A stretch of DNA of 64,000 nt from a virus. The stretch is from IMG/VR virus record IMGVR_UViG_3300046786_000502, positions 52,894 through 116,893 of that record. The stretch is one strand, 5' to 3'. Of the stretch, positions 9,622-56,743 are shown one piece after another. Position numbers and translations under genes: made by a program. Numbering within the stretch: the first letter of the stretch is position 1; every line of letters starts with the position of its first letter. The notes beneath the pieces are model-generated. The model was not told the origin of the DNA and did not search any database. It saw only the letters and a list, made by a program, of their open reading frames with translations.

Positions 9622-9622
9622 C

Positions 9623-9696: not shown

Positions 9697-9697
9697 T

Positions 9698-9772
9698 GCC
9701 TTCTTAGCTCAGTGGTAGAGCAACGCACTTGTAATGCGTAGGTCGTCAGTTCAATCCTGACAGAAGGCTCCA
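9698..9772 (+). tRNA. tRNA-Thr(TGT)
   Basis: acgca-CTTGTAA-tgcgt; encoded CCA. Confidence 0.95.
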
Positions 9773-9773
9773 T

Positions 9774-9848
9774 GGTCCCATAGTTTATCGGTTAGAACGC
9801 TGCCCTTTCACGGCGGTGGGAGGGGTTCGACTCCCCTTGGGACTACCA
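9774..9848 (+). tRNA. tRNA-Glu(TTC)
   Basis: ctgcc-CTTTCAC-ggcgg; encoded CCA. Confidence 0.93.
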
Positions 9849-9852
9849 ATAT

Positions 9853-9923
9853 TCTCCCTTCGTCTAATGGCAAGACTCCAGGTTTTGGTCCTGGCTATCG
9901 AGGTTCGAGTCCTTGGGGGAGAG
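9853..9923 (+). tRNA. tRNA-Gln(TTG)
   Basis: ccagg-TTTTGGT-cctgg; full cloverleaf. Confidence 0.92.
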
Positions 9924-9963
9924 CAAGATTAATTCATTAGTGCTATAATAGTCTAAGAAAGGT

Positions 9964-10674
9964 TTGGATGTGGAAAAACCAGATATAATGACGATGGACG
10001 TACCCAATTTTAACGTGTGGTACGAAACTTTTGATCCTATTTTTTCTAAGATAAGTCAGCAGTCGAATATCCCATTAAAGTGGATAGAGTTTTGGCCAAT
10101 AAGATATGGGCAGAACAAGAACTCTCCAATCAAACCAATCAATAGATATGTAGAAAGGTTGTACCCAAAGCCAAAGCTTATAGATATTAGTAATAATATA
10201 GTTAGGCTTAGACAGGGCAACCATGCAGAAATCATTCTACTGGTAGATCCAGAAAATAGATTCCATAGTGGCGGTCAAGATACAGATGGATTCTACAATG
10301 TTGATAGGCCATGGATGAGACAATACTATCAGTCTAAGCTACAAATTCCAAAGCCAGACAATTGCTTTGACCCATTATATAAATTTTACGTTCCATGGTT
10401 TCCAGATGCTGATGTTACTGTTCATTTTGAGCCATCTCCAGTAGAGACCCCATTCCACACCTTTGAGTCAGTAGGATCGTACAAAAAAGTAGATGCATTC
10501 CTAAGATTTGCTGAGCCACACTTTGTTCCCTTCTATTTTAAAAAAGAAGGGGCACACATGGAAAGTCCAACACAAGGAAGAGTTCTAAGACAGTCTGCAA
10601 TGTACGATATGGTATTTCATGCAGATGATGCTTTGATAGAGAGAATAAGGAAACAATATGAAGAAAAAGAATAA
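9964..10674 (+). CDS. Hypothetical protein, possibly a distant paralog of the two following genes
   Basis: Long ORF after TGCTATAAT promoter; KFYVPWF and ETPF motifs. Confidence 0.65.
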   Translation: MDVEKPDIMTMDVPNFNVWYETFDPIFSKISQQSNIPLKWIEFWPIRYGQNKNSPIKPINRYVERLYPKPKLIDISNNIVRLRQGNHAEIILLVDPENRFHSGGQDTDGFYNVDRPWMRQYYQSKLQIPKPDNCFDPLYKFYVPWFPDADVTVHFEPSPVETPFHTFESVGSYKKVDAFLRFAEPHFVPFYFKKEGAHMESPTQGRVLRQSAMYDMVFHADDALIERIRKQYEEKE

Positions 10675-11398
10675 AGTAAACAAAGTACGTTTTTTCAACA
10701 TTAGCGAAAAGACACTAAACTTTGTCCCAGAACCTGGACCTGCAAGTAAGTTTATGCCAGCTTGGTATAAGAAGCAACCAGGTAACGTTGATGAAAACAT
10801 GTTGGCTGTAACTGGTCAGCCAGCAAATACTGTAAAGAAGTGCATGCCAATCTTTGATGCAATGACTGGTGGATACATTATTACACTTCCAATGGACATC
10901 TTTGTTGATGCCAGCCATCCAGATAAGCTAGATAAGCAGATACCTGCTGCAATGGGTGGATACAAAGCAGAAATTTTTGCAACTCATGATCGCAAGCAAT
11001 ACTCAGAATACCCAATTGATGAAGAGGTCTACCACAAAGATCTTCTTAGAATTTTCCCATTTTGGGTTGTAGGTACTAGCGAAGGCGTAAGCTCTTTGTT
11101 TATTCAGCCATTGCACAGAGACCAGACACCACTATTTGCATTGTCTGGAATTATTGATACAGATCAATACCCATCAGATGGTCATCTATCCTTTATGGTC
11201 AAGAAGGGCTTTAAGGGTATCATTCCACAGGGCACTCCACTAGTACAGGTCATTCCATTTAAGCGAGAACCGTTTGAGATGGAGTTTGTAGATCAGGCAG
11301 AAACAGAAGAGTACCTGATGAAAAAGCGTATGACACTAAGAAGTTCATTCTCAAACAGTTATAAAAACAAGTTTAGAACTAAGAAGGAATGGAACTAA
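10658..11398 (+). CDS. DUF6065-like (dUTPase-like fold) phage protein
   Basis: PAWYKK, KKCMPIFDAMTGGY, SGIIDTD, IPQGTPLVQVIPFKR. Confidence 0.65.
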   Translation: MKKKNKVNKVRFFNISEKTLNFVPEPGPASKFMPAWYKKQPGNVDENMLAVTGQPANTVKKCMPIFDAMTGGYIITLPMDIFVDASHPDKLDKQIPAAMGGYKAEIFATHDRKQYSEYPIDEEVYHKDLLRIFPFWVVGTSEGVSSLFIQPLHRDQTPLFALSGIIDTDQYPSDGHLSFMVKKGFKGIIPQGTPLVQVIPFKREPFEMEFVDQAETEEYLMKKRMTLRSSFSNSYKNKFRTKKEWN

Positions 11399-21718: not shown

Positions 21719-21955
21719 ATGAAGAATATCAAGTCATTAGAGCAAATGGAAAAGATTGTGAAGTCAACACGCTCTCTTAGTTGGGATGGTTGGGATGTGC
21801 TCAAGTCATATCCAAATCCAACTGCATGGAGAAAGCCAAATGCACGTTATATCAAGGGCAGATGGTTCACTGTTGACCGCTACCCAGTAACAGAGAATGG
21901 GTGGATCATTCCTGAATCAGCACTAAAGGACAACTATGCAGGTAAAAGAAAATAG
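21719..21955 (+). CDS. Hypothetical protein
   Basis: ORF in operon; LSWDGWDV Trp-rich motif. Confidence 0.65.
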   Translation: MKNIKSLEQMEKIVKSTRSLSWDGWDVLKSYPNPTAWRKPNARYIKGRWFTVDRYPVTENGWIIPESALKDNYAGKRK

Positions 21956-22232
21956 AAATGCATGGAAGTCTAGAGCACAGTGCAAAGGGTTTGACACAGA
22001 ACTATTCTTTGACAAGTATGAAGAAGATGTTGAGTTAAGAGCTGACGTTGATGAGCTGTGTGCCATGTGCCCAGTAGCACGTCAATGCTTTGCTACTGGA
22101 GTATCCCAAAAAAGTTGGGGTGTCCATGGTGGAGTTTACCTAGTAGATGGTGAAATCTCTAGAGAGTTTAACAATCATAGAACAAAGGCAAAATGGTCAG
22201 AGACATGGAAGAACCTAACAATGGACAAATAA
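21936..22232 (+). CDS. whiB: WhiB-family Fe-S transcription factor
   Basis: W..RAQC, LFF, CAMCPVARQC, WGVHGG. Confidence 0.88.
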   Translation: MQVKENRNAWKSRAQCKGFDTELFFDKYEEDVELRADVDELCAMCPVARQCFATGVSQKSWGVHGGVYLVDGEISREFNNHRTKAKWSETWKNLTMDK

Positions 22233-43453: not shown

Positions 43454-44196
43454 GATAGATCTTACTGTTTATTTAAACAGATAGGGTTAAAGTGGATGGA
43501 TGTGGATGATAGTGGAGTATTGAGCACCAAAGATCGTAGGGCCATCGTAATCCTACCACAAATTGATCCATTTGTCAAATCGGACATATCCAAATTGTTA
43601 CCAAATTGTGATATTAATCATAGTTATCAAATTGTTATATTTGACAAATCAGGGATATTGTGGTATGCATCGTAATAAAAAATTTGTCCAAATCGGAGAT
43701 AATGTTATACATAAATTAAATAATTTGATATAACAATATTCTAATTTGGACAAACTTCAAGAGATGTTCTCTTATTAGTACTATAGGGGATATAGATGGT
43801 TCTTCGTAATCCCCCCGTTAAATGGGGACCACCCCAGGTAGTAGTTCTACCATGATCATTGAGATCCTTTCTACTTTATTTTATCTTTGAAAGACTCTTC
43901 TGCGATCTTTGGCGGTAGCACGGTAAATGAGAAGAGCTTTTGAATCCCAGTATACTTAGTAAAAGCATGCCAGATAAATAGAGATAGCTCATTGTGATCA
44001 TCTCTTTGCTCTTGAGCAGCTTTAGGGTATGATACTTGAAAGAAATGGTTTCTAGGACTCATGTTTCTATTATACACTAATTTGACAATGTCCTAGGATT
44101 CTGGTAAAATTATATGCCCTTCGTAAAGTCCAGCGAATTTTTATGATCCTTCGTAAAGGAGCTAAAAAAATACCACGCCCACCTGGGTAAAAGAAA

Positions 44197-44214
44197 AGCC
44201 ACCCGAAGGTGGCT
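44197..44214 (-). terminator. Intrinsic terminator ending the minus-strand gene array
   Basis: AGCCACC-cgaa-GGTGGCT preceded on + by AAAAGAAA (U-tract on -). Confidence 0.75.
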
Positions 44215-44519
44215 ATTTCAAATTAGATTATTTGGGACAATCGGAATAGGGGAAGTATTCCTTTTCCTCGCAGGTGCAGAAGCCAAAGTCTTCTACCTGA
44301 GTAGTGTGTGTTAGTGATGCCAAATCAGACCAGTAATAAACCTTTTCCATTATTCTCCTACCTTCCATTCCATGATATCAGCAATAGTATTCATTGTCAA
44401 GTGCAAACTACAATCACAGTCTCCACCCATGTTTTCCATGAAGTCAAAGTGTGAATAGTTATCTTCATATATCTTAGTAACCAACTCATGTACTGCATAT
44501 GGGGTTGTCATAGTTTCTC

Positions 44520-44786
44520 CTAACTATTGGCCATTACGTAGTCTAGCATAGTTTCGTCTTCATAGCAACCACAGCATTCAACACAAATAATCTCATTATC
44601 CTTGCTGCAGTTTGGACACATGTATTCTGACATGTTCATCTCAGGGTCTTCACAGAACTCACAGATAGTCTGCTGCAGTTCTTCAAAGGTGTAGTCTCTT
44701 AGGTGCTTATCTACCTTGAACATATGTTTTACCCTTGCCTTCTGTCCATGCCGCAATTTCTTCGTCTTCTGAGTTAGCGATATCAA
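44520..44786 (-). CDS. Small Cys-rich hypothetical protein
   Basis: CEFC, CPNC, CVECCGC; true start probably internal. Confidence 0.55.
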   Translation of the reverse strand: MISLTQKTKKLRHGQKARVKHMFKVDKHLRDYTFEELQQTICEFCEDPEMNMSEYMCPNCSKDNEIICVECCGCYEDETMLDYVMANS

Positions 44787-45060
44787 TCATTAAATCATTA
44801 GAGAACATCCAGTCACGTACCCAGTCATAGAGGTGTTCAGTTCCATACTCAAGGGTAAATTCAGGGGTATTGGATATGAGTGCTTCCCATACAATATCCT
44901 GAGTACGAATATATAGTTCTTCATCTTGATAGAAGGTATCAATGATATCCCATACCCATAGCCATACAAGGCTAGGGAATAGAGTCTCATTTAGTTTGTT
45001 TAGTTTATCTAGAATGTCTCTTAGGACTTCTAGTTCTTCTAGTTTGGGGTTGTTCATCAT
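44707..45060 (-). CDS. Hypothetical protein
   Basis: AGGAA RBS; minus-strand operon. Confidence 0.65.
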   Translation of the reverse strand: MMNNPKLEELEVLRDILDKLNKLNETLFPSLVWLWVWDIIDTFYQDEELYIRTQDIVWEALISNTPEFTLEYGTEHLYDWVRDWMFSNDLMIDIANSEDEEIAAWTEGKGKTYVQGR

Positions 45061-45069
45061 ATTCCTATT

Positions 45070-45342
45070 CTACGCTTTATCTAGCATATTGTCAAGTGTC
45101 TCAAAGCCTGTGTCTTCGATACCCAGCCCTGCCAGCAGCAGATCCCAAGTCTCGTTAATAAGATTAGTTGACATCTCATTCTCCATCTTTACGACACCAT
45201 TATCGACCAGGTATGCCAAGGGCAGCCCAAGATCGTTATACTCAATGTAATCAGCAAAGTCTTCATCTGCTCTATAGTTAAGCCATAGTTCAGATAAGAT
45301 AGTTACTTTATTCTCTATAGTTGTGGATTGTGATTCCGACAT
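45070..45342 (-). CDS. Hypothetical protein
   Basis: GGAGGAG RBS; YNDLGLPLAY motif. Confidence 0.7.
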   Translation of the reverse strand: MSESQSTTIENKVTILSELWLNYRADEDFADYIEYNDLGLPLAYLVDNGVVKMENEMSTNLINETWDLLLAGLGIEDTGFETLDNMLDKA

Positions 45343-45511
45343 CGTTGCTCTCCTCCTGCATTGCTTCTGTCATTATTTCAACTCTACGAAATGTGGTGCT
45401 AGGTCTCATTCGTGCTAGATAAATACCAACACGCTCAATGTCTAGTCTTAGGTCACAAATCATATTTGAAATCTTGACTGCGACTTTCTCTTCGTCTGTC
45501 ATATATTTCAT
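45308..45511 (-). CDS. Hypothetical protein
   Basis: AGGAG RBS. Confidence 0.6.
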   Translation of the reverse strand: MKYMTDEEKVAVKISNMICDLRLDIERVGIYLARMRPSTTFRRVEIMTEAMQEESNDVGITIHNYRE

Positions 45512-45651
45512 TCATTTGTCTCCTGTCATCATTATAGCAAAAATAAGGGGAGAGGGCAAGTAGTGAAAGTAGGAAATTTCTACTCACCCCCTCCCTGGTG
45601 GTACAGCCGTCAACCCCTTAACAGCTGTACTATCCTAGGAGCTAAGCTCGA

Positions 45652-46005
45652 CTAGGAAGCTTCATATACTGGGAATGACTCCAGATAATCTTTAATTGTA
45701 TTAGGCATGATGCTAGCATAGTCCTGCAGGTACCCATACATGCCATACCATGCATCCCCACCATCAAAGTAAGGGTCATTGTTAAGGCCCAGAGCTCTAA
45801 TCTCTTCAGGTGTCATGGGACGTGCATCAGCTACCTCCTGGTGCCCAGCTCCATCTACCTTGTATACGTGCACATGCCATGACGTAGGGTCATAGTACCA
45901 CTCATCAGTCATAGGGTCCTGAATCTCCTGCATGAAGATGTTCAGGTCATAGTCAATCATGGTCTTAGCTTTCTTACGAAATAATGTCAGCATTGTCTTC
46001 TCCAT
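45652..46005 (-). CDS. Hypothetical protein
   Basis: ORF in operon; start uncertain. Confidence 0.6.
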   Translation of the reverse strand: MEKTMLTLFRKKAKTMIDYDLNIFMQEIQDPMTDEWYYDPTSWHVHVYKVDGAGHQEVADARPMTPEEIRALGLNNDPYFDGGDAWYGMYGYLQDYASIMPNTIKDYLESFPVYEAS

Positions 46006-46402
46006 AAATCTGCTTGAGTGCTTCTACGGTGTCACAGTCGATATCTACTAGGCCCTCATCACATTCAGGGCATTCAGGATTGTATTCGCCATCTTCAGTC
46101 TCATCACTGCAATCACAAATACGGTAGGTCCAAGTAGGAATCTCTGTATATTCATCTTCCCAAGGATTCTCAGTGATGTAGTAATGAATGCGATTGACGA
46201 AGTGCCAGCCTGCTACGATGTAAGTACCTTCATCACCATCTACTTCAGTCCAGATGTGCTTAGGGTCTTGTGTCTTGACGAAATCAACTTCTTCACCGTA
46301 TGTTTCAAAATGAATAAGGCTGTCGTCTTGATACTTACTGATATTATTTTTGATTGGCTTAAAGGTATCTACCCAAGAGCCATACGTGTAGAACTTAGAC
46401 AT
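45974..46402 (-). CDS. Hypothetical protein with C-terminal Zn ribbon
   Basis: FETYGEE, GWHFVNRIHYYITE.PW, CDC...CPEC. Confidence 0.7.
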   Translation of the reverse strand: MSKFYTYGSWVDTFKPIKNNISKYQDDSLIHFETYGEEVDFVKTQDPKHIWTEVDGDEGTYIVAGWHFVNRIHYYITENPWEDEYTEIPTWTYRICDCSDETEDGEYNPECPECDEGLVDIDCDTVEALKQIYGEDNADIIS

Positions 46403-46589
46403 TAAGTGGGGTCTCTCTTCCATACTCTCTGATTACGTCTTCGAACTTGTCATTGCCAAATCCGTCATGTTCATCAATGATAGCAGATAGTTGCTCTGCT
46501 GTCAAATCGTCAGTGTCTAGTACCCAAACTGGGTGGGTAGGGTCAAGCTCCCACCAATCACCATTAACATTAGTAATATACTTACTCAT
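46395..46589 (-). CDS. Hypothetical protein
   Basis: GAGGA RBS; operonic. Confidence 0.6.
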   Translation of the reverse strand: MSKYITNVNGDWWELDPTHPVWVLDTDDLTAEQLSAIIDEHDGFGNDKFEDVIREYGRETPLNV

Positions 46590-46761
46590 CTTCATCCTCT
46601 TCTTCGTTCTCAAACTCTTCAACTTCGATAGAATAAACACCATCATAAATCATATTATCAAAGTTCCAACCAAACTCCTCTGCCTCTTTTTCATTGGCAA
46701 ACTCATCGTCATCACTTTCATACCAATATGTAACAGTCGTTTTAATTGTGTGCCGTGCCAT
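46582..46761 (-). CDS. Small acidic protein (not in ORF track)
   Basis: MARHTIKTTVTYWYESDDDEF...EEEDEDE; fills the gap. Confidence 0.6.
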   Translation of the reverse strand: MARHTIKTTVTYWYESDDDEFANEKEAEEFGWNFDNMIYDGVYSIEVEEFENEEEDEDE

Positions 46762-47003
46762 TAACAGTTCTCCGATACAACAGGGATGTTCTCTACACCC
46801 AACATCATAAGTACGCTAGTATAAGCAGATATCATACCCTCGATGAAATCTCTCTCGTGGTCATTGATATCAAGAGGCTCAATCATGTCGCCTAGTTCAT
46901 GCAGTTCCTCAATAAGATTATTACACATTCCAATTGGGTCTGCATAGTGAATGGCTTTGGTGTTCCATTCGATTTCAGGGATTGTTCGTTCTACTTTCAT
47001 CAT
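46761..47003 (-). CDS. Hypothetical protein
   Basis: AGAAAGGA RBS before MMKVER. Confidence 0.6.
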   Translation of the reverse strand: MMKVERTIPEIEWNTKAIHYADPIGMCNNLIEELHELGDMIEPLDINDHERDFIEGMISAYTSVLMMLGVENIPVVSENC

Positions 47004-47016
47004 GCTGCTTCCTTTC

Positions 47017-47547
47017 TTAGAAGTGGAAATCCACAGGTACAAGATACCAGTTTTTGTTGCCTTTGTCAATACTCTCTAGCATATATTTCGGGGTAGTGGA
47101 ATAGTTATCCAAATCATAGAAATAACTATCAGAGTTCCAAGTACCATTGATAAGGTCTGCTGCCTTTTTGATGTAGTATGAGTTCATATCAAATCTGTCC
47201 TCATCTTCAAATGAACCAGATACAAACTTATCAATAAGATTAGTAAATGTATCTATTTTGATGTGTGCTTGTATGTATTCCATTTCTGAAGTACGACATG
47301 CAAGGCTTTTATCAATAAGTTCCAAGAAACTATTAGGGCTATTATCATATGAAAGAACGTCGTTGTGGCTATCTTTATACTGGTTACTAGAATCACTATT
47401 CCAACGACCACCACCAACAACATACCAATCAGACCAACCACCTAGTCCCTCACTTTCTGAATACATCTCATCAAACTTGTGCTTGACTGTGTCTGCTGCT
47501 GCCTCTGCTGATTCTGCAGTTATTGCGATTTGTTGAATTACGTGCAT
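47017..47547 (-). CDS. Hypothetical phage protein (WSDWYVVGGGRW ... VPVDFHF family)
   Basis: AGAAAGG RBS and promoter directly upstream. Confidence 0.75.
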   Translation of the reverse strand: MHVIQQIAITAESAEAAADTVKHKFDEMYSESEGLGGWSDWYVVGGGRWNSDSSNQYKDSHNDVLSYDNSPNSFLELIDKSLACRTSEMEYIQAHIKIDTFTNLIDKFVSGSFEDEDRFDMNSYYIKKAADLINGTWNSDSYFYDLDNYSTTPKYMLESIDKGNKNWYLVPVDFHF

Positions 47548-47800
47548 GGGGGTTTCCTTTCTACTTTCTAATACCTCAATTTTACACTGACCCACTGACA
47601 TTTGTCAAATACATTTGTGGGAAATCCTGGAAATTGATCTTAATCTCGTAATTGATTAAATAATCTTATTATAGATATGCACATGGATTTCTGGGAAATT
47701 TGTTATCATATCGTAACCTGAAATACTTGACAAATAATATAAGTTAGGGCTCGCCACATTTTTGCAGCTTTGTCAAGTGCAACACGATCACCAGAGGTGA

Positions 47801-47828
47801 GGGCAGTTTTACATGTTGCCCAGCATGT
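47801..47828 (-). ncRNA. Repeated pseudoknot, copy B
   Basis: ACATG-C-TGGGCA-A-CATGT-AAAAC-TGCCC on minus strand, 4 nt after stop. Confidence 0.7.
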
Positions 47829-47832
47829 TTTG

Positions 47833-48846
47833 TTATGCGTTAGCCATTACGCCTTGCACAACTTTTAGCAGACGATTCTTTTCTGCGTTTATCATTGGGT
47901 CAAATCCACTTGCACTTGCAAGAATAGATTCGTTAGAACCACCACGTGCAGAGCGATACCAGTCGAGACGTTCAGTTAGTGCATTGAAAGCACCCCAAGC
48001 GTTACCAGCAATCATGCCGTTGAATTGTCCAGTGTAAATGTCGTTGATGACATCCACCTTGTTTTCCCACTTCTTGACAGCACCCTTAGTGTCCTTGTCA
48101 GGCTTAGGGTATGCAGACAGAATGATGTCGTTGAATTGCTTAGCGGTGACTTCTTGCGAAATCATAGCGTGTGCCATCTTGTCGAACTCATCCATGTATT
48201 TGTTAGCAAGACCAAGAGTCTCACGTGCAACAGCAATCTTGCCTTCTGCGGTTTGCGTGTGACGAATCTTGAAAGACTGCTTAGGGCCTTTACCACGTGC
48301 CCCAAGAGCAAGATTCAAAGTGTTAGCACACACAACACGAACAGGTGTGATAGACGCTTGAATTGCAATCGAACCATCGTGAGAGGTGTTGATTAGAAGA
48401 TAAGTCTTTACCTTATCTGCAACGCCGTTAGGGTCAAGAACAGTCTCACGTTCTAGTGCCATGCTACCAAAGACAACACGTCCGCCCTTGATAGAGCCAG
48501 CAGTTTCCCAACGTCCGCCACCATCTAGGATGTTGTCACCGAATGAGAAGAGGTCTTCGTTCTGAAGAACCTTGTAACGCTCTCCAACAACGCCAAGAAC
48601 ATCGTTCTGAGAATTGTCGAATGGGTTAGTGCGAGTAACAAAGAAATAGTTCTTGTCACTTGAGAATGTGTCAGGAATTGAAACGTCTTCGAGACGAACA
48701 TTCCAGTCGTTTAGGTGTGCAAGCGAAAGCATTTCTGAAGTAGTAACTTCATCTTGAAATACAGTTCCAAGACCATGCCATGCAGGCTCTCGCAATGAAG
48801 CGAAAGCGGTGTTTCCGTTTGCATCTGATTCTAGCAAATGAGCCAT
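47833..48846 (-). CDS. DUF932 / TIGR03299 phage-plasmid protein
   Basis: MAHLLE, PAWHGLG, YKVLQNE, ETAGSIKGGR, SHDGS, TPVRVVCANTL, RHT, WGAFNALTE. Confidence 0.9.
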   Translation of the reverse strand: MAHLLESDANGNTAFASLREPAWHGLGTVFQDEVTTSEMLSLAHLNDWNVRLEDVSIPDTFSSDKNYFFVTRTNPFDNSQNDVLGVVGERYKVLQNEDLFSFGDNILDGGGRWETAGSIKGGRVVFGSMALERETVLDPNGVADKVKTYLLINTSHDGSIAIQASITPVRVVCANTLNLALGARGKGPKQSFKIRHTQTAEGKIAVARETLGLANKYMDEFDKMAHAMISQEVTAKQFNDIILSAYPKPDKDTKGAVKKWENKVDVINDIYTGQFNGMIAGNAWGAFNALTERLDWYRSARGGSNESILASASGFDPMINAEKNRLLKVVQGVMANA

Positions 48847-48966
48847 GAGAGGCTCCTTTCTGTTGTAGGGTTTATTTCTATTACTATAATTTTACATGAC
48901 CCCACCGACAATGTCAAGTTATACAGGCAAAAATCTTGGGCGTTTCATAACGTTCTCGTAACAAAG

Positions 48967-48987
48967 TTATCCACAAAGTTATCCACA
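48967..48987. promoter_or_regulatory. Tandem DnaA boxes
   Basis: TTATCCACA at 48967 and 48979 (12-bp period). Confidence 0.7.
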
Positions 48988-49021
48988 GGGGGCTCGCCCA
49001 AGATCCCCAGGGCATGGAGAA

Positions 49022-49051
49022 TGAGCAGTTTACATGGACGTGCTCAGGTCC
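49022..49051 (-). ncRNA. Repeated pseudoknot, copy C
   Basis: GGAC-C-TGAGCA-C-GTCC-ATGTAAAC-TGCTCA. Confidence 0.7.
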
Positions 49052-49096
49052 CTTAGCATGCAGGCAGAAAGAAAGGATGAACGCCTGCAGTACCTC

Positions 49097-49294
49097 TTAC
49101 TCTACGTTAACCCATTTCATTGCGGTACGTAGAAGATTGTCATAGTCTCCAGACATGCTTTCATTCATATACTGTTCAACCTCTTCAGGTGTTGCTCCAG
49201 CTTTTCGAATGGCCTTAGATACGGCTGCCATGATAGCGAATGCATTTCCGTCATTGCCAGTTAGTTTTACGGTTACCGTTTGATACTTGCTCAT
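49097..49294 (-). CDS. Conserved small phage protein (DGNAFAIM...SGDYDNLL)
   Basis: GGAGG RBS; recognisable motif. Confidence 0.75.
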   Translation of the reverse strand: MSKYQTVTVKLTGNDGNAFAIMAAVSKAIRKAGATPEEVEQYMNESMSGDYDNLLRTAMKWVNVE

Positions 49295-49482
49295 TACAAT
49301 ACCTCCGTTAGTGTCTCTGAATAAGTTACATCATTATCTAGATTGTCAAACTTGTAACCTAGATTTTCATAGTCTGATTCTTCCTCATAGCCTTGTGATA
49401 CAAAAAACTTTGCTAGGGCCTCATCAGGGCTGTCTGCCATTACTGACCAACTCTCACCTGTTAGGATTGTGAATTCTTCCAT
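49294..49482 (-). CDS. Hypothetical protein
   Basis: TAATG overlaps at both ends. Confidence 0.6.
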   Translation of the reverse strand: MEEFTILTGESWSVMADSPDEALAKFFVSQGYEEESDYENLGYKFDNLDNDVTYSETLTEVL

Positions 49483-50000
49483 TATGCCATTACCTCTTCC
49501 TTTGAGAACTCATTCAAGTATAGTTCAGGGGTAGGTAGTTTGTCAAGAGCAAACACAACCCTTCTTCCACCATACTGTGAGACAAATAGTCTAGTTTGGA
49601 AATCAATTGTGTAGATACCCTCACACATCAAATCATCTTCAATGAAGTCAATTTGGTTAGATAGGGGCACACGACCAGTTGAGTAGGTAACAACCTTGAG
49701 AATGTCTGAACCTGTATTTCTAGTTAGACTAGGATACATTACAGAAAACTTATCGCTGTTATCCATTGTCATCATACCATCTGGGGTAACATATGGCTTG
49801 TACATCTCTTCCAACTCTGATTCAGTAGCGAAGTAGCATTTGAATAGTGCCTTCTCCAACTGCTCTACAACATTGTAGCCAGAGATGAATGATAAAATAT
49901 TTAGACCTTGTCCATCTGGATAGTGGTCCCATTGGCCATACTGTGCAACAACAGTCTTACCAGTTGAATCGATTACCTGTGTGATACCTCTTGTACCCAT
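49482..50000 (-). CDS. Hypothetical phage protein (MGTRG...QWDHYP family)
   Basis: Strong RBS and promoter upstream. Confidence 0.75.
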   Translation of the reverse strand: MGTRGITQVIDSTGKTVVAQYGQWDHYPDGQGLNILSFISGYNVVEQLEKALFKCYFATESELEEMYKPYVTPDGMMTMDNSDKFSVMYPSLTRNTGSDILKVVTYSTGRVPLSNQIDFIEDDLMCEGIYTIDFQTRLFVSQYGGRRVVFALDKLPTPELYLNEFSKEEVMA

Positions 50001-50155
50001 TTCTTTCCTTCTTTCTCTTTATACCCTCAATTATAGCGATAGGGTCTGACATTTGTCAAGTTATTTCCTGGCGTGTCGTAAGCATTTTCTTAAATGTTAC
50101 CAAAACGTTATAAACGGGCTCGCCCTCAGCTGATCATTTGTCAAGCCCATTAGGG

Positions 50156-50182
50156 GAGCAGTTTTACAACTTGCTCAGGTTA
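50156..50182 (-). ncRNA. Repeated pseudoknot, copy D
   Basis: TAAC-C-TGAGCA-A-GTTG-TAAAAC-TGCTC, 5 nt after stop. Confidence 0.65.
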
Positions 50183-50187
50183 CCCTG

Positions 50188-50367
50188 TTACTTCCCAACA
50201 AGGAAGAGCGAGATTGGCGACTTACGCTTCTGCTTTACGGGAATGTTCTTGGTCTGGTTAGTAGCACCAATGAAGTGTCCATTAGCGTCACGAACTACTG
50301 CCTTGTAGATTTCACCATTCTTGGTGTTCCACTTTTCTGTTGCGATTACAATCTTCTTACGAGCCAT
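50188..50367 (-). CDS. Small basic protein (not in ORF track)
   Basis: MARKKIVIATEKWNTKNGEIYKAVVRDANGHFIGATNQT...; AGGA RBS. Confidence 0.65.
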   Translation of the reverse strand: MARKKIVIATEKWNTKNGEIYKAVVRDANGHFIGATNQTKNIPVKQKRKSPISLFLVGK

Positions 50368-50401
50368 TTTTATTTTCCTATTCTTGTTGGGGTTATTAGA
50401 G

Positions 50402-50432
50402 TGAGCAGTTTAGCATTGACTTGCTCAGGTCA
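50402..50432 (-). ncRNA. Repeated pseudoknot, copy E
   Basis: TGAC-C-TGAGCA-A-GTCA-ATGCTAAAC-TGCTCA, 10 nt after stop. Confidence 0.7.
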
Positions 50433-50442
50433 GTTTCTCAGT

Positions 50443-50889
50443 TTAGAGAAGTTCCATTACAGAGTTGTAGGTTGAAGCATTGACTTCTTCCTGCTGTGTC
50501 ATACGAAGCACCTTCAAGTTCTTCTTCAACAAGTCCAACTTGGTGGTGTAATCACGACCATAGTAAGTCTGCTGATTTGGTCGCTGTGGTTCTTCTGGCT
50601 TCTTTGGGAAACCTAGTGCCTCAGTATCAAACTCAACAGAGATACCATTGTAGCGGTATGACGAAGTGATACGGATTAGAGAGCCACTCTCAGTTCCAAT
50701 GTTGTCAGGGTTGCCTAGTGCCTTGATAGCGTGAGCAATAACATCTTTTTCATACTGCTTAGCGTCTGCTTCATACTGCTTACGCTTGCCAGCATACTCC
50801 TCAATGTCCTGCTCTACCTTGGCGATTTGGTTTTCTACCTCTGCGATTAGAGAAGCGGTTGGGATTTTTACTGATAGGCTACGAGCCAT
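50443..50889 (-). CDS. Hypothetical coiled-coil protein
   Basis: AGAAAGGA RBS before MARSLSVK. Confidence 0.75.
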   Translation of the reverse strand: MARSLSVKIPTASLIAEVENQIAKVEQDIEEYAGKRKQYEADAKQYEKDVIAHAIKALGNPDNIGTESGSLIRITSSYRYNGISVEFDTEALGFPKKPEEPQRPNQQTYYGRDYTTKLDLLKKNLKVLRMTQQEEVNASTYNSVMELL

Positions 50890-50959
50890 TTGTTTCTTCC
50901 TTTCTTTCTTTGTTAGTTCTATTTTACTTGATTTATTGGGGGTTGTCAAGTTAGTTGGG

Positions 50960-50988
50960 TGGGCAGTTTATTGTGATACCCAGCACAA
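50960..50988 (-). ncRNA. Repeated pseudoknot, copy F
   Basis: TTGTG-C-TGGGTA-T-CACAA-TAAAC-TGCCCA, 8 nt after stop. Confidence 0.7.
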
Positions 50989-50996
50989 CATACCCG

Positions 50997-51149
50997 TTAG
51001 CCCTTGTAGGTTGTCCAGCGTGGCTGTCCATTTACATTGAGGCGAACACGCACCGAGCCAGATGCGTTAGGAACAATCTCCTCGATAGTTCCAGTAACCT
51101 TGCTCTTTAGAGTAGTGAAAGTGTCACCAATCTTGTAAGTTGCGGTCAT
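50997..51149 (-). CDS. Small SH3-like beta protein
   Basis: GAAAGGA RBS; YKIGDTF..KSKVTGTI..VRVRL..RWTT. Confidence 0.65.
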   Translation of the reverse strand: MTATYKIGDTFTTLKSKVTGTIEEIVPNASGSVRVRLNVNGQPRWTTYKG

Positions 51150-51424
51150 TTTGCTTCCTTTCCATTTCTGTTGTTTTATACCAACTTTTGTTGATAATAC
51201 TATTGTAGTGGATACCTCTGACATTTGTCAAGTCTATTTGATAACATTTTGATAACAACTATTTACTTTTTTGTCTGCTGATTTCCAACTACTACTATTA
51301 TGGCATAGCCCACCGACAAAGTCAAATCCAAAAACTGTGAAAAATGTCACAATTTCATAACGCTATCATAACTTGACAAACGGATCAAATTGTGGCGAGC
51401 CCCTTTCGGGGGATTTGTCAAGTC

Positions 51425-52141
51425 CTATTTTTTAGTTGCACTAAACAGAATGTCATTGCGATTAAATACACATTGCGAACAGGTTACACATGCACTGCCA
51501 CTTTCACTAATAAGTTTAATTTTTTTAGCATTTTCGGGGCATGGTACTGCAGCCTTTTCTTGAATGTTAGCAAAATCTAATTTACCTTCTGCAAAAGTCT
51601 TAGCAAGGTATGCAAGCTTTACATCATGCTTCTTCTTTAGTTGAATGCCTAGTGAGCGGTTAGCACTATCAGTACTAAAATAAAGTGATAGGTTAGCAAT
51701 TCCCATTAGTGGTTCAATAGCGAATTCTGAACGGGTATAAGCCCAAAATTGTGTATCTGCATGCTTAAGAATTACATCCTTCCATGCCAATACATAAGTC
51801 TCATTAAAGAAATCGCCATCCCAGTGCAAGCGGAATAGTTTTTCTGCATTACGCTTATCACAGTCCTTCTTGAATGAAACGATCATCTCATCCAATAGGT
51901 TGTACATGGTTAGATAATCAGCGTCTTTAAGTTGCTCCCAATTGTTGAGCAATACATTCTTTACGCCTTTATAGACTTTTTCGAGCTTTCCTGCATAGCA
52001 GACACTTTCACATACAGTGGTTGCACCAGGGCACGAGTAAGCCTTTCCACTAGGTAATCCAAAAGTGTTGGCGATAGTTGGGGTTTTTCCATTTGGTGAG
52101 ACTGCATTAGTGACTTTCCTATCTTTCGAACGAATTAGCAT
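51425..52141 (-). CDS. GP88-like protein (actinophage Cys-rich family)
   Basis: FGLPSG..SCPGAT..C..VCYA, FRLHWDGDFF, FWAYTR, CPE, CVTCSQC. Confidence 0.8.
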   Translation of the reverse strand: MLIRSKDRKVTNAVSPNGKTPTIANTFGLPSGKAYSCPGATTVCESVCYAGKLEKVYKGVKNVLLNNWEQLKDADYLTMYNLLDEMIVSFKKDCDKRNAEKLFRLHWDGDFFNETYVLAWKDVILKHADTQFWAYTRSEFAIEPLMGIANLSLYFSTDSANRSLGIQLKKKHDVKLAYLAKTFAEGKLDFANIQEKAAVPCPENAKKIKLISESGSACVTCSQCVFNRNDILFSATKK

Positions 52142-52172
52142 TAGGGGTCCTTTCTTTCTTTAAACTATTTTA

Positions 52173-52460
52173 TCAGTAATCTTCATCCATGTCAAGCCAT
52201 GCGTCAAGGTGGTGAGCCTCAATAATTGCATAGGCAGGGGCTTCAATTGCTCCACGCCATGATACGCCATCGGGCAGGGTAATCATACGTGAGCCTTCAT
52301 CTTCATTGTAAGCGTTAATAGCCTCAATACATGGCTGCACCATAGATAGTGGCACAGGTGGATAGTGGTTGCCTCTCAAGTGCATACCAATTGCGTCTTC
52401 TAGTGTTAGATTAGGGAATAGGTCTGAATCAGCCAATTCCATTGCCATGTTGCTTCCCAT
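52173..52460 (-). CDS. Hypothetical protein
   Basis: AAGGA RBS; HLRGNHYPPVP, HHLDAWL. Confidence 0.7.
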   Translation of the reverse strand: MGSNMAMELADSDLFPNLTLEDAIGMHLRGNHYPPVPLSMVQPCIEAINAYNEDEGSRMITLPDGVSWRGAIEAPAYAIIEAHHLDAWLDMDEDY

Positions 52461-52762
52461 TTTATCCTTCTTTCTCTTGGTCAATAATAGCATTGTAGAT
52501 ACTACTTTGTCTAGTCCTTTGACGGCGTGTCCTTCTATCAAGGTGAGTGCCACTAGCGTTGCTACGCCTAATCTCTCTCATAGCCTCAGCCATAGCAGGG
52601 TTGGCAGTTGGCTTATACTTCTTAGGCTTATCTTTCTTCATACCCTAATGCTAGCAGAAACGGGTGACATTTGTCAAGTCCACTTAATTAGTTTTTCTTA
52701 AATGTTATCAAAATGTTATAAAGGCGAGCCCATCCTGGATCATTTGTCAAGCTGACACGCTG

Positions 52763-52894
52763 TTAGAATGGTGGGGCGTTATCATCTTCTGCGTCACGAT
52801 ATCCAGCGGAATAGCCAGAAGAAAACGCAAACTTATACACGATAAAAGCGATTACGATATCGACAAGTAGATTGAAGCCGTTATAAAAAATCAT
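52763..52894 (-). CDS. Small membrane protein (not in ORF track)
   Basis: AGAAAGGA RBS; MIFYNGFNLLVDIVIAFIVYKFAF...PPF. Confidence 0.6.
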   Translation of the reverse strand: MIFYNGFNLLVDIVIAFIVYKFAFSSGYSAGYRDAEDDNAPPF

Positions 52895-52923
52895 TAGTTA
52901 TCCTTTCTTTCTTTTAGTATAGA

Positions 52924-53067
52924 CTATGGCAGTAAATCTGTCAAGTCTTCGCCAAGGTATTCCTCAGCGTCTTTCATAGGCATAAGCCCCTTGTAGTCAT
53001 TACATTCGTGGCAGACATAGCCCTCCACGATTGTGTAGCAGAAGACACATACTGTTAGTTCGTTCAT
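52924..53067 (-). CDS. Small zinc-finger protein
   Basis: AAGGAG RBS; CVFC...CHECNDYKGLM. Confidence 0.65.
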   Translation of the reverse strand: MNELTVCVFCYTIVEGYVCHECNDYKGLMPMKDAEEYLGEDLTDLLP

Positions 53068-53307
53068 TTTGAACTCCTTTCTTTTAACTAAGATAATTAA
53101 ATCACAGAACTTCTGGAAAGTCAAGCGACACGCCGTATCTTAATTATAACAATTTGATAACGGGGCGAGCCCACGCAGTCGGGCGTGTCGCCCTCCTGGT
53201 GGATCCGTTTTATTGATTCTGTGCGATCTCAGCTTTTAGTTTAGCAATTGTTAAAGCTTGAGACATATTAAGAATGATTAAAAGAATTGTGAAAAGAGTT
53301 TGAGCCA

Positions 53308-53496
53308 TTACTCTTCTCCCTCTCCTAGTTCTGCGAACACAGCGTCAATAAACTTTTGGTAATTGAAGTTTGGGTTATCATTTTCAAACATCTCTGCGAA
53401 ACCATCTGCGATTTCTTGAAGAACAAGAAAGTCAATCTCATCAGTAAATTGGTTTAGAATGTTTGCGGTCTGAACATAGTCTTTACGAGTCATCAT
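53308..53496 (-). CDS. Small phage protein (MMTRKDY...DNPNF family)
   Basis: RBS, promoter, recognisable motif. Confidence 0.75.
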   Translation of the reverse strand: MMTRKDYVQTANILNQFTDEIDFLVLQEIADGFAEMFENDNPNFNYQKFIDAVFAELGEGEE

Positions 53497-53751
53497 TTTA
53501 TTTTCTATCCTTTTCTATTTGGTTTGTGTTATTAGTTTAGTGTATTGGTCTGACATTTACAAGCATTTACTGTTATCGTGTCGCCTGTTATTTTTACAGT
53601 GGCAAGGGTATCGCATGAGTCACAGATAAAGATTTCCATTTGTTAAGCCTCACAATCATGACCGAAATACCATTCGGCAGCCTCATCAGCATTCCATAGG
53701 TCAAAAGTACGATTACATTCTTTACATTTCATTGACATTAGTTGTCCTTTC

Positions 53752-53949
53752 TTAGTTAGTACGAACAGCGATTGTACGATACTTGTATCCAATTCCATAC
53801 TCTGGACGGATAGTTACAAGATACGCTTCTGCGTCTGAGTAAAATACATCATCACGCTTTTCTGCGTATTCGATTACACCTCTAAGAGTGTGTGAGCGAT
53901 AGTAAGTTCCCTTTAGGGCTTCTTCGATTGTATAGACATTTGCTGACAT
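53752..53949 (-). CDS. Hypothetical protein
   Basis: AGAAAGG RBS and promoter. Confidence 0.7.
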   Translation of the reverse strand: MSANVYTIEEALKGTYYRSHTLRGVIEYAEKRDDVFYSDAEAYLVTIRPEYGIGYKYRTIAVRTN

Positions 53950-53999
53950 TAGTTGTCACCTTTCTTTAGTAGTTTAATTGTATAACAGGGGTCTGACAT

Positions 54000-54296
54000 T
54001 TAGATAATTGAGTAATTATCTTGGTGAGCAACACACTCACCGATTTCACCATTTAGGTGGTAGTGAGTATCTAAACCCATTTCAATTTCTTTTCCGTTAT
54101 CAAGAGTGATACGGACAGCGTGGGCATTGTGCCCGTGAATCTTAGTTACAACACCAACAGCGTTAGCATTAGTGTAAAACATCTTACGGGCTAAGAAAGA
54201 GCCATTAGGCTTTTCTGAACCTTCGATTTTTTTACTACCTGCACGATTGTAGATAGCAACGGCTGAACCGATTTCAATAGTACGAAACTTTTTCAT
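54000..54296 (-). CDS. Hypothetical protein
   Basis: GAAAGGAG RBS and promoter. Confidence 0.7.
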   Translation of the reverse strand: MKKFRTIEIGSAVAIYNRAGSKKIEGSEKPNGSFLARKMFYTNANAVGVVTKIHGHNAHAVRITLDNGKEIEMGLDTHYHLNGEIGECVAHQDNYSII

Positions 54297-54646
54297 TTTT
54301 AGTTCTCCTTTCAAGAGACTTTCTTTAACTTTCTATGACTAAAGTCTATCATAGGGGTCTGACAAATTGGTAGTCACAAATCGGACATTTGCCACATTTG
54401 TGATTGTGATTTAGGTCTCATTTATTCGCTAGGCTCACCCGTTTTTCGGTTTATTTGCTAGGCTCATTTTGACCTAAATTCCTCTATTTATTTATAAGAT
54501 AAGACTAGCAGACATATCTCAAAAAGTCAAATCGACACGCCGTGTTTTTGGGAAATTTTTATAACGGTCTTATAACGACACGCCCGACCACGGGGGCGAG
54601 CCTACTTTGATCACTTTGTCAAGCTTTCATTTCGGCGTGTTGCGTT

Positions 54647-54829
54647 TTAGATTTTGGCTTTACCAACCAAAGTACCTGAAATAGAAAGTGCATCACACGC
54701 AACTTTCACTGCAATCCCAGCAGGTAATTTTGCAGGGTAGTCATTTATGAACTGAGCAACTGCACCCTTACTAGGGAGAGAGATTACGGACACATTACCA
54801 TTGAATGTTTCTAGTTTTACTTTATACAT
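54647..54829 (-). CDS. Hypothetical protein
   Basis: TAATG overlap. Confidence 0.65.
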   Translation of the reverse strand: MYKVKLETFNGNVSVISLPSKGAVAQFINDYPAKLPAGIAVKVACDALSISGTLVGKAKI

Positions 54830-55011
54830 TAGTTAGATACCTTCCAATCAGACCAACCAGATAGGCGGTCACTGTCATAGTCCATGTACCATGACTCAAT
54901 ATTATTTTCACACACTTCACAGAATGTGTAGCAAGTGTCATTGTGGAATGACTTAGCAGACTTATTAGGGACATGCTTTTCACATGTTATTGTTTTTTCT
55001 AGTGTTATCAT
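54829..55011 (-). CDS. Small Cys/His protein
   Basis: AGAAAGG RBS; CEKH, TFCEVCENNI. Confidence 0.65.
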   Translation of the reverse strand: MITLEKTITCEKHVPNKSAKSFHNDTCYTFCEVCENNIESWYMDYDSDRLSGWSDWKVSN

Positions 55012-55303
55012 TTTGACAACCTTTCTTTATTAACTGATAGGACTATCCTAGCATAGGGGTCTGACAAATAGGGGCTTTATTTGCTAAGGCTCACTGTGAT
55101 ACTAGTCACATTTATTTGCTTAGGCTCATTACCTTATTTATCTTTATTTAATTGTTTATAGTAGAATACTAGCAGATAAAACCCAAAAAGTCAAGTTTAG
55201 ACACGCACAAAACGGACATTTTCCAAGTGTTTTATGTCACATAACATAAGGGACAAAACGGACATTTGGGCGAGCCGATTTTTGATCTTTTGTCAAGTAG
55301 CTT

Positions 55304-55477
55304 TTACATTTTTCTTAGCATTTCGTTATAGTCTGCTAATGCTTGAGCGAATAATTCGGGGTACTGAAGAGCAATAGCCTCTATACGCTTATCGCTATCC
55401 TTCATCTCTTGAAAGGTACCACCCCAATGGGCAGAGTGGTTTTCTGCTATTTCTTGAATCATAGAGTCATAGTTCAT
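55304..55477 (-). CDS. Hypothetical protein
   Basis: TAATG overlap; start at MNYDS. Confidence 0.55.
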   Translation of the reverse strand: MNYDSMIQEIAENHSAHWGGTFQEMKDSDKRIEAIALQYPELFAQALADYNEMLRKM

Positions 55478-55824
55478 TAGGCTACTACCACCTTTACACC
55501 ATTTTCGGTGTAGTAGATTTCGCAAGGGGTAGTTTCACCCTTAGCAGTAGGGCAGTAAGTAACACTCTTACTGCTAGCGTGGTTAGTTATTCCCTTTAGG
55601 TAGTTATCCTTAGAGAAGTAACCCTTTACTAGGTAGATAGTGTGTTCCCAACCTCTACCTGATACAGCAGAGTTAGTTACTGACTCACCACATACAGAGC
55701 AAGTACCAAACCATAGGCGGTTATCTTTACGGAAACCATCAGCAGGGTTTTCTACTGAGAAGTTAGTACCAATTCCGTTGATACGGATTGAATCGAAGTT
55801 TTCTTTTGTTATTACTAGTGACAT
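55477..55824 (-). CDS. Hypothetical protein, first gene of the minus-strand array
   Basis: AGAAAGGA RBS; CSVCG. Confidence 0.7.
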   Translation of the reverse strand: MSLVITKENFDSIRINGIGTNFSVENPADGFRKDNRLWFGTCSVCGESVTNSAVSGRGWEHTIYLVKGYFSKDNYLKGITNHASSKSVTYCPTAKGETTPCEIYYTENGVKVVVA

Positions 55825-56069
55825 TTTATTGTCCTTTCTTTTTTATTACTATCTTTTCTTTATGTATAAAGACTAACACACACCACTGACAAATACAAGC
55901 CTATTTGGGGTGTTTTTGATAACGTTTTGGTAACATTTAGGTGGGGGTGGTATGTGCTCACTATAGATTTATCGACTTTTATTCTAAAACGTGTATCGTA
56001 CACTTATTAAAAATATTCAGATTTTTGCAATTTTGGATTCACGTGAAACAGCCAGGGTATAATAGAGTT

Positions 56070-56243
56070 ATGGAAGATCAATTTGATAAAGAATATCCCC
56101 AATACGATAACTGGGCTATAAAAATTTTTTCAGAAACATGCTGCAATGGATGTTTGTGTAAATCAGAGAATGAGCATAAAAAAAGACCAGATACAGTAGA
56201 AACTGAGTCTGGTCTAATTTTGAACGGTACGGTTAACGACTAG
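56070..56243 (+). CDS. Small Cys-containing protein
   Basis: GGTATAAT then ATG; CCNGCLC. Confidence 0.5.
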   Translation: MEDQFDKEYPQYDNWAIKIFSETCCNGCLCKSENEHKKRPDTVETESGLILNGTVND

Positions 56244-56430
56244 TATTAATGTAACCGTGTTCAACAAGCAAATCAAACAATAGACCATTCACATACATCA
56301 TCTGAGGACGTTGCTGTGATAGCTGCTGTTCAACTTGATCTTGTGGAACATTATGTTGCTGTGCCATAGCACGATTCATGTTATCAATATGATCACTCAT
56401 AAGCTGAACCACTTCGTCACGTAGTAACAT
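56233..56430 (-). CDS. Hypothetical protein
   Basis: AAGGAG RBS. Confidence 0.65.
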   Translation of the reverse strand: MLLRDEVVQLMSDHIDNMNRAMAQQHNVPQDQVEQQLSQQRPQMMYVNGLLFDLLVEHGYINTSR

Positions 56431-56533
56431 TTTGTCTCCTTTTCCCTATAGGTATTTATATGATATCACAATTTGGATATTGGTGTCAAATAATTTCGGG
56501 GGATATAAATAGCGTAGCTATTGCGTAGCAGGC

Positions 56534-56743
56534 TTACCACTTCTTAGCAGGACAACTCGCTTGAGTCAATGTAGCCTTTAATGACATAAAGCATCCACAT
56601 AGCCTACATCTCTGAGTCTTTTGACGAAAGAATTCACATTGATGGCATATATCTAATCTTGCCTGTATTAGGTCTTTGTCGCCTGTTCTAGCCCCTGGTT
56701 TTAATAGGTCTAAGGGAGTTACCTCTTTACCGCTGTTTTCCAT
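56534..56743 (-). CDS. DUF6171-like Cys-rich protein
   Basis: RLDICHQC...CRLCGCFM..K..L..ASCP..KW. Confidence 0.75.
   Translation of the reverse strand: MENSGKEVTPLDLLKPGARTGDKDLIQARLDICHQCEFFRQKTQRCRLCGCFMSLKATLTQASCPAKKW

Follow-up and report, generated by a model that had tools for sequence, protein, structure and literature searches.

Promoters of the PafBC type in a small-gene block of a freshwater actinophage: possible capture of a host DNA-damage activator

The stretch of DNA analysed here (64,000 nucleotides, called the window throughout, with positions counted from its first base) belongs to the IMG/VR virus record IMGVR_UViG_3300046786_000502. It contains a block of small minus-strand genes, many of them preceded by a promoter-like element, TGTCRG-N10-TAnnnT, of the kind through which the actinobacterial activator PafBC turns on genes after DNA damage. 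We estimate a probability of about 60% that host PafBC reads the phage box and that the block is in this way wired into the host's DNA-damage activator; the reading is drawn from sequence, host PafBC being the simplest account of a box copied exactly, with its degeneracy and spacing, by a phage that itself lacks a factor of this type. The broader proposition, that an abundant freshwater actinophage family gave control of its host-takeover genes to PafBC, the host's alarm for single-stranded DNA (ssDNA), so that a host activator was captured by promoter mimicry, stands at roughly even odds.

The in vivo consensus of PafBC promoters is given as tGTCgg(N10)tA(N3)T in the available excerpts of PMC8635444, which also state that the helix-turn-helix of PafB contacts positions -23 to -28, that two arginines read both guanines of GTC, and that these promoters are without a -35 consensus; the reading of such promoters is termed "sigma adaptation" there and in the excerpted text of PMC11804915. 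The phage copies have tGTCRG exactly 10 nucleotides (nt) before the -10 and a sigma-A -10 hexamer of the form TAnnnT (one window copy has CATAAT instead); as to the -35, 5 of the 11 window copies are without one and 6 have TTGAC(A/T). Hexamer, R degeneracy and spacing thus equal the published consensus (PMC8635444, as excerpted), and the identification of the motif with the actinobacterial PafBC pattern, made in a first-pass annotation of this DNA, holds.

That annotation had also proposed a whole-genome scan against shuffled controls. A pattern scan found 11 strict matches to TGTCRG-N10-TAnnnT in the window, against a mean of 1.10 and a maximum of 5 in 100 dinucleotide shuffles, none of which reached 11; the remaining 52.9 kb of the 116,893-base genome holds zero additional strict copies. 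Ten of the matches are on the minus strand within 47579-55891, and one is on the plus strand at 7716-7737. Relaxation by one letter yielded two extra variants, 52648-52669 (TGTCAC..TAGCAT) and 51297-51318 (TGTCGG..CATAAT), which are the single TGTCAC and CATAAT copies listed previously. One strict copy (53927-53948) is probably a chance match and not a promoter, because the motif there coincides with a start codon and the codons next to it (A-TGTCAG-CA...). Nine strict copies and two variants are left, giving 11 credible minus-strand promoters spread over 8.3 kb; the count of 11 plus one on the opposite strand is therefore recovered, and the two examples quoted at 48889 and 47579 are exact to the letter.

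An AAAGGA-type ribosome site and an ATG lie 27-52 nt downstream in 9 of the 11, in agreement with the statement that most stand just upstream of a ribosome site and a small gene; the 52669 copy and the plus-strand 7716 copy have a leaderless-type layout, with the ATG 6 nt past the -10, an arrangement common in actinobacteria. TTGAC(A/T) is found 1-2 nt upstream of TGTC in six copies (47600, 48910, 50051, 51223, 51318 and 52669), the "about half" of the annotation, and in the plus-strand copy likewise. These six hybrids have 17-18 nt between TTGAC(A/T) and the -10, and match the sigma-70 consensus at 10-12 of 12 positions; the five copies at 53.5-55.9 kb are without a -35 and fall short of a plain sigma-70 promoter. 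Four window copies start with TGTCRGTGG, the same nonamer as in host recA promoters. The 11 minus-strand elements appear to be real promoters of a cassette-like block whose genes are probably early or host-takeover genes. The features are as follows, in the direction of transcription of the block.

43462-56743, minus strand: the gene block, the genome's only long minus-strand block, made up of small genes.
55870-55891, minus strand: PafBC-type promoter, TGTCAGTGG..TAGTCT, without a -35, before a 115-residue gene (55477-55824).
55045-55066, minus strand: PafBC-type promoter, TGTCAGACCCCTATGC-TAGGAT, without a -35, before a 60-residue gene (54829-55011).
54343-54364, minus strand: PafBC-type promoter, TGTCAG..TAGACT, without a -35, with a ATGTCCGATTTG element 24 nt upstream, before a 98-residue gene (54000-54296).
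53977-53998, minus strand: PafBC-type promoter, TGTCAG..TACAAT, without a -35, before a 65-residue gene (53752-53949).
53927-53948, minus strand: strict match, probably chance, that covers the start codon and the next codons of gene 53752-53949.
53534-53555, minus strand: PafBC-type promoter, TGTCAG..TAAACT, without a -35, before a 62-residue gene (53308-53496).
52648-52669, minus strand: variant TGTCAC..TAGCAT with TTGACA at 18-nt spacing, before a leaderless-type 59-residue open reading frame (ORF; 52462-52641).
51297-51318, minus strand: variant TGTCGGTGG..CATAAT with TTGACT at 17-nt spacing, the upstream partner in a tandem pair, 95 nt from the next promoter.
51202-51223, minus strand: hybrid promoter TTGACAaaTGTCAG..TACAAT, before a 50-residue gene (50997-51149).
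50030-50051, minus strand: hybrid promoter TTGACAaaTGTCAG..TATAAT, 12/12 sigma-70 consensus with an 18-nt spacer, before a 172-residue gene (49482-50000).
48889-48910, minus strand: hybrid promoter TTGACAtTGTCGGTGG..TAAAAT, before the DUF932 gene (47833-48846).
47579-47600, minus strand: hybrid promoter TTGACAaaTGTCAGTGG..TAAAAT, before a 176-residue gene (47017-47547).
7716-7737, plus strand: the sole copy outside the block, TTGACAtTGTCAG..TATTAT, before a 59-residue ORF (7744-7923) with its ATG 6 nt past the -10.

The arrangement is conserved in related viruses. IMG/VR contains 426 relatives of the DUF932 protein, and 80 of their loci (81-94% identity, guanine-plus-cytosine [GC] content 36-41%, 1.33 Mb) were taken as a family set. 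These loci carry 607 copies of the motif on the gene strand and 40 on the opposite one, a 15-fold bias, and the spacer is N10 in 607 cases, N9 in 14 and N11 in 2, which bears out the invariant 10-nt spacer originally described. When all hexamers located 10 nt upstream of TAnnnT were counted with no prior, TGTCAG was the commonest (580, versus 68 for the runner-up), and 72% of all gene-strand TGTCAG hexamers sit in the motif arrangement. Of the 18 hexamers that differ from it by one letter, TGTCGG alone is clearly retained, 27 of its 88 copies standing in the motif; the corresponding share is 9% for TGTCTG, 8% for TGTCAC, 6% for TGTCAT and at most 4% for the rest. Because these other variants are hardly kept, the box can be written TGTCRG, with an almost invariant GTC core. 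A weight matrix built from 530 distinct copies reads W-TGTCAG-(T/A/C)(C/G)(C/G)...TGn-TAnAAT, and 99% of the copies have W ahead of the box, 95% A as its position 5.

Before the DUF932 orthologues, TGTCNN-N10-[TC]AnnnT is present in 78 of the 80 loci while the 10-nt spacer varies freely across 67 distinct sequences, a clean footprint; the family as a whole has 479 distinct central 47-mers. An ORF starts 20-59 nt past the -10 in 84% of 511 distinct copies, versus 27% of random positions, and 5-9 nt downstream in 8%. Four complete relatives (110.9-116.6 kb) have 7-10 copies each, clustered on a single strand within 5-9 kb; the reversed control gives 0-2 per strand.

The phage appears to contribute no reader of its own of the known type. 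WYL, HTH_PafC and sigma-70 region 4 domains are absent from the 116,893-base genome at E values up to 1, WYL is absent from the four complete relatives, and a tblastn search of the phage genome with the PafB/PafC pair of a plausible host had a best E value of 0.46. The suggestion that the phage might encode a PafBC-like factor elsewhere is consequently removed for proteins of the WYL/HTH_PafC type, the homologue search that the annotation had proposed having found none. Within the block, the only families recognized are DUF932 (47833-48846) and mycobacteriophage GP88 (51425-52141); a PHROGs scan of the block proteins returned zero families, and 30 protein scans of the block matched no DNA-binding family, the MotA and AsiA families not being among those searched for.

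The source virus is an uncultured freshwater actinophage with an unusually low GC content. Its genome (116,893 bases, 39.8% GC, of which the window is bases 52894-116893) has a completeness rating of 100%, and the IMG/VR topology class "linear" indicates that end repeats were not found for the contig. Genes for a portal, a protease, a capsid protein and a tail protein of 2288 residues are present, as are those for DnaB, a DnaE-type polymerase, a RecA/UvsX-like protein and NrdE; nine tRNAs and a large glycosylation set are also encoded. The assignment to the actinophages follows from a WhiB-like gene (window 21936-22232, E 1.6e-12) and from the kinship of DnaE (55% identical) and the capsid protein (42%) with those of Streptomyces phages in cluster BE/BK, among them BillNye and Jay2Jay. 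In the divergent WhiB-like protein, WGVHGG takes the place of the usual motif. The WhiB family is described as restricted to actinobacteria and their phages in the excerpted text of PMC6802176. By megablast, none of 50,697 phage records matches the gene block, and the stretch is contained in metagenome runs labelled freshwater; leaving aside the possible source, 8 runs from 8 studies share at least 57% of its words.

The phage's own genes did not name a host. Relatives of the phage WhiB are absent at E 1e-6 from 401 genomes of one actinobacterial class, and rhodopsin is found in only 2 of 401 genomes of the class of genome G047. The phage NrdE (window 1238-3352) is 75% identical to its counterpart in four actinobacterial genomes, 4.5-7.5 Mb in size; the small genomes of the same sample gave no hit at E 1e-50. 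An atlas search with NrdE returned a family name only, and NrdE points to no host.

Plausible hosts came instead from a 371-genome sample of the class to which the large NrdE-bearing genomes belong. Rhodopsin is encoded by 49 of these genomes, of which about 28 are 1.3-1.5 Mb in size and many consist of a single contig; we call them acI-like, a label that rests on size, rhodopsin and GC. (This tally, and that of the 121-genome phylum sample used below, include genomes flagged unpublished.) All 25 examined rhodopsin-bearing actinobacterial genomes (1.3-1.5 Mb) have two adjacent WYL genes. In genome G774 the pair encodes a WYL+WCX protein (316 residues) and an HTH_PafC+WYL protein (302 residues) and is followed by tatC; pafB-pafC-tat is the gene order in actinobacteria. 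All 25 also have TGTC[A/G]G-N10-TAnnnT before recA (20 TGTCAG and 5 TGTCGG, typically TGTCAGTGGCGCCTGCTACCTT), directly followed by a LexA-type box in 21 and accompanied by a -35 in none. The same box precedes recA in four of four large high-GC genomes (3 TGTCGG and 1 TGTCAG), and hence in 29 of the 29 WYL-bearing genomes of the class examined. These comparisons suggest that PafBC is retained in the likely host group, which favours A at position 5 of the box just as the phage does.

Three acI-like genomes were scanned for TGTCRGTG-N8-TAnnnT and have 5, 7 and 2 sites, versus 0, 0 and 1 in the reversed control. Behind the sites are recA, carD, the genes of a small LysM protein and of two Dcm methylases, and a few more; the PafBC-type promoters at recA and carD also carry TGn. 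In two of the three genomes (L174 from G913 and L180 from G697) a C-5 cytosine DNA methylase follows 18 nt behind an TGTCAGTG-N8-TATGCT promoter, and the gene behind this TGTCAGTG element may be a restriction-modification gene under the DNA-damage activator. The small LysM-domain gene has a PafBC-type promoter with LexA-type boxes on both sides (L177 from G774 and L181 from G697); mycobacteria have a damage-induced LysM protein next to lexA. Most host recA promoters (L140-L160) have CGACAC(GCC) 13-19 nt before the box, and this sequence was considered as a link between phage and host and then dropped, being absent from the other host PafBC-type promoters.

If host PafBC is the reader, the host's housekeeping RNA polymerase (sigma-A) would recognize the -10 hexamer, and TGTCRG, at about -28 to -23, would be read by the host PafB/PafC heterodimer, an HTH-WYL-WCX pair that once bound to ssDNA would sit between sigma region 4 and the DNA, as in sigma adaptation. 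The phage would thereby couple its gene block to the host ssDNA alarm, with entering or replicating phage DNA, nuclease attack on phage DNA, or breakdown of host DNA as possible triggers; what turns on the phage programme would be the initial reaction of the cell to DNA that is foreign or damaged. The -35-less copies would sense damage or entry and might switch on counter-defence genes upon cleavage of phage DNA by host nucleases, and the TTGACA-bearing copies would provide a basal level independent of PafBC.

RNA data are available as contigs only, and per-bin depth is unfit for ranking genes. Three metatranscriptome runs contain 57-70% of the block's words. Their contigs end at 47551, 47557 and 47556, and one DNA contig continues to 47995; among the contig ends listed, no loose end occurs at this 47551-47557 stop. 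The -10 at 47579-47584 predicts a start near 47572, so that the RNA contigs stop 15-21 nt short of it, a weak hint at a transcription start. One RNA contig (49135-50057) crosses the promoter at 50030-50051. In the bin just upstream of the first box (55876-56192) the three RNA runs are without cover and the DNA run has 38.7, absent cover being no evidence in either direction.

Several findings weigh against reading by host PafBC. Chromosomal PafBC promoters are without the TTGACA -35 that about half of the phage copies add, and in the family 18% of 463 distinct copies have at most one mismatch to TTGACA at 17 or 18 nt, versus a background of 1.5% (at least three mismatches are seen in 63%, background 90%). 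The extended -10 element TGn occurs in 58% of family copies overall, in 62% of those without a -35 and in 34% of those with a good one, which looks like compensation; because TGn is so frequent there, many -35-less copies could fire without an activator. TGn is no argument against activation, on the other hand, because the host recA and carD promoters carry it. Further regulators are pointed to by extra conserved elements upstream: ATGTCC occurs 148 times upstream of 527 distinct family promoters (8.8-fold enriched; TGTCCG 12-fold), and CGACAC(GCC), seen on the window's minus strand at about 50085 and 53590, is enriched 8.7-fold. Jay2Jay has no TGTCRG-N10-TAnnnT in its homologous 16-kb left arm and two in 133.5 kb, the control level, and the array is accordingly a trait of the freshwater family and not of all relatives; the Streptomyces hosts of Jay2Jay presumably have PafBC. 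Most RNA contig ends are to be regarded as assembly breaks, being shared with DNA contig ends (51069, 49111/49822).

The host evidence also has its adverse side. WYL was found in 99 of the 121 genomes of the phylum sample and not in the other 22, and of 20 listed WYL-negative genomes 16 are 1.3-1.8 Mb, which raised the fear that streamlined freshwater actinobacteria are without PafBC. Ten small genomes of the phylum were inspected before recA: the nine without WYL are also without the box, two of the nine showing a LexA-type box, and the WYL-bearing one (G025) has TGTCGC-N10-TATTAT; these ten are not shown to be hosts. A WhiB scan of genomes yielded only six phage-like contigs (33-43% GC, L087-L092) with conflicting labels of their metagenome-assembled genomes (Bifidobacterium, Polynucleobacter, Saccharibacteria, Acidimicrobiaceae, Arenimonas and Chitinophaga), and no host was taken from it. 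The contigs are read as misbinned because loci of the Acidimicrobiaceae-labelled bin have about 70% GC and its phage-like contig 34%; six unrelated labels for WhiB-bearing phage-like contigs are a sign of viral contamination of public bins. The claim that the small-gene block is wired into the host DNA-damage activator stands in part: the consensus match, the actinophage assignment, the lack of a factor of the phage's own and candidate hosts with PafBC and a recA box speak for it, and the -35 in six of 11 copies and the frequent TGn against it.

In an unlikely alternative, the promoters are self-sufficient for sigma-A, by a -35 or an extended -10, and TGTCAG is an operator or a decoy, either a repressor site for later shut-off or one of many high-affinity sites that soak up PafBC and blunt the host's DNA-damage or defence response. 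TTGAC(A/T) in 6 of the 11 window copies, TGn in 62% of the family copies without a -35, and the copy at 50030-50051 with 12 of 12 sigma-70 consensus positions would suit such a scheme, as would the tie between PafBC and phage resistance in mycobacteria that is stated, with reference to a 2025 paper, in the excerpted text of PMC12848934. A spacing fixed to the base (607 versus 14 and 2) is predicted by joint recognition with the polymerase and is needed less by an operator; moreover, 63% of family copies differ from TTGACA at three or more positions, and TGn is found in host PafBC-type promoters at recA and carD as well. The idea that the motif is a functionless by-product of cassette duplication, or chance, has in its favour that the genes are repeated cassettes with similar intergenic regions, and is highly improbable: box and -10 are kept while spacer and flanks vary (479 distinct central 47-mers, 67 distinct sequences before one orthologue), one-letter variants are depleted, and the strand bias is 15-fold.

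We also regard as quite unlikely that TGTCAG is read by a phage-encoded activator of an unrecognized family, redirecting sigma-A polymerase in the manner of T4 MotA/AsiA, with the likeness to PafBC due to convergence. Such a protein would either be expressed from canonical promoters within the block or arrive with the virion; box-free sigma-70-like promoters that could serve a first wave are present in the block, nearly all of its proteins are family-less, so a regulator could hide among them, the array is specific to the phage family and absent from Jay2Jay, and further conserved upstream elements exist. The T4 AsiA/MotA comparison is, moreover, drawn in PMC8635444 itself, in the part available. 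The activator would have had to arrive by chance at the host system's 2 of 4096 hexamers, with their R degeneracy and at a single spacing; WYL, HTH_PafC and sigma region 4 are absent from the phage, and plausible hosts use the identical box. Recognition by host PafBC thus carries the larger share of our confidence.

The block contains further signals. Sigma-70-like promoters without a TGTC box have their first hexamer at 56489, 52944, 52195, 50949, 46505, 45095, 44400 and 43578. In the downstream third (43500-47100, minus strand) near-consensus TTGACA-N17-TAnnnT promoters without the box begin at 47069, 46505, 45095, 44400 and 43578, and because this third uses such promoters the block can be divided into zones with two promoter classes. 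In the order of transcription, -35-less copies (55.9-53.5 kb) precede the hybrids (52.7-47.6 kb), and plain sigma-A promoters come last, below 47 kb; this layout may point to a graded reliance on the alarm.

Another conserved sequence, ATGTCC(G/A)..T (typically ATGTCCGATTTG), is located 23-41 nt ahead of the TGTCAG box and has TGTC in common with it (window minus strand at 55265, 55219, 54388 and 43587; also in family loci L005-L084). Right after stop codons on the minus strand are CTG(A/G)GCA...AAACTGC(T/C)C elements (47790-47830, 49020-49060, 50150-50190, 50400-50440 and 50955-50995), beyond which come a TTGACAaa...GCGAGCCC element and GTTA(T/C)(C/G)A repeats, and then the promoter. The CTG(A/G)GCA, GCGAGCCC and GTTA(T/C)(C/G)A elements may be terminator substitutes or operators.

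A literature search at the level of listings and abstracts found no description of PafBC-type promoters in a phage genome; PafBC and sigma adaptation have so far been known as a chromosomal DNA-damage circuit of actinobacteria. Were reading by host PafBC correct, this would be the first virus to exploit a WYL-type ssDNA sensor as its own switch, its promoters would provide a natural set of variants, some with a -35 and some lacking it, in which sigma adaptation could be dissected, and DNA-damage signalling, phage infection and defence would be linked in the most abundant freshwater bacteria.

Among known systems, the Streptomyces phage Jay2Jay (Stanwilliamsviridae) has homologous small-gene cassettes on the minus strand of its left end, with a DUF932 protein 55% identical to that of the present phage; its cassettes (L004, Jay2Jay 1-11000) are marked by a GC hairpin in the intergenic region of each gene, by CCGGACA further upstream and by a TTGTAt-N17-TAGACT-like promoter. 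The host-takeover module of Bacillus phage SPO1, which lies in the terminal redundancy and has plain sigma-A early promoters, resembles the block in its many small family-less genes, all or nearly all with strong promoters of their own, gathered on one strand at one side of a genome that exceeds 100 kb. The middle promoters of T4, read through MotA/AsiA by "sigma appropriation", offer a parallel in design: a box about 10-12 nt above the -10 (the MotA box at -30) replaces the -35, and the primary sigma factor of the host is re-aimed. Box sequences differ, and the factor proposed for the present phage is a host protein; no phage-encoded activator such as that of T4 was found here, the MotA and AsiA families not having been searched for. 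Sigma adaptation by PafBC has itself been compared with AsiA/MotA (PMC8635444, in the excerpts available).

Close to the array, too, are the chromosomal PafBC-dependent promoters of Mycobacterium and other Actinobacteria, known as the RecA-NDp or recA P1 type. Both the array and these promoters have TGTCRG at -28 to -23, 10 nt upstream of TAnnnT, and both have an invariant GTC core and W just before the box. The phage strongly prefers A at position 5, where the mycobacterial consensus has g. The chromosomal promoters serve repair genes, whereas the phage array places 11 copies within 8.3 kb before genes of no known function.

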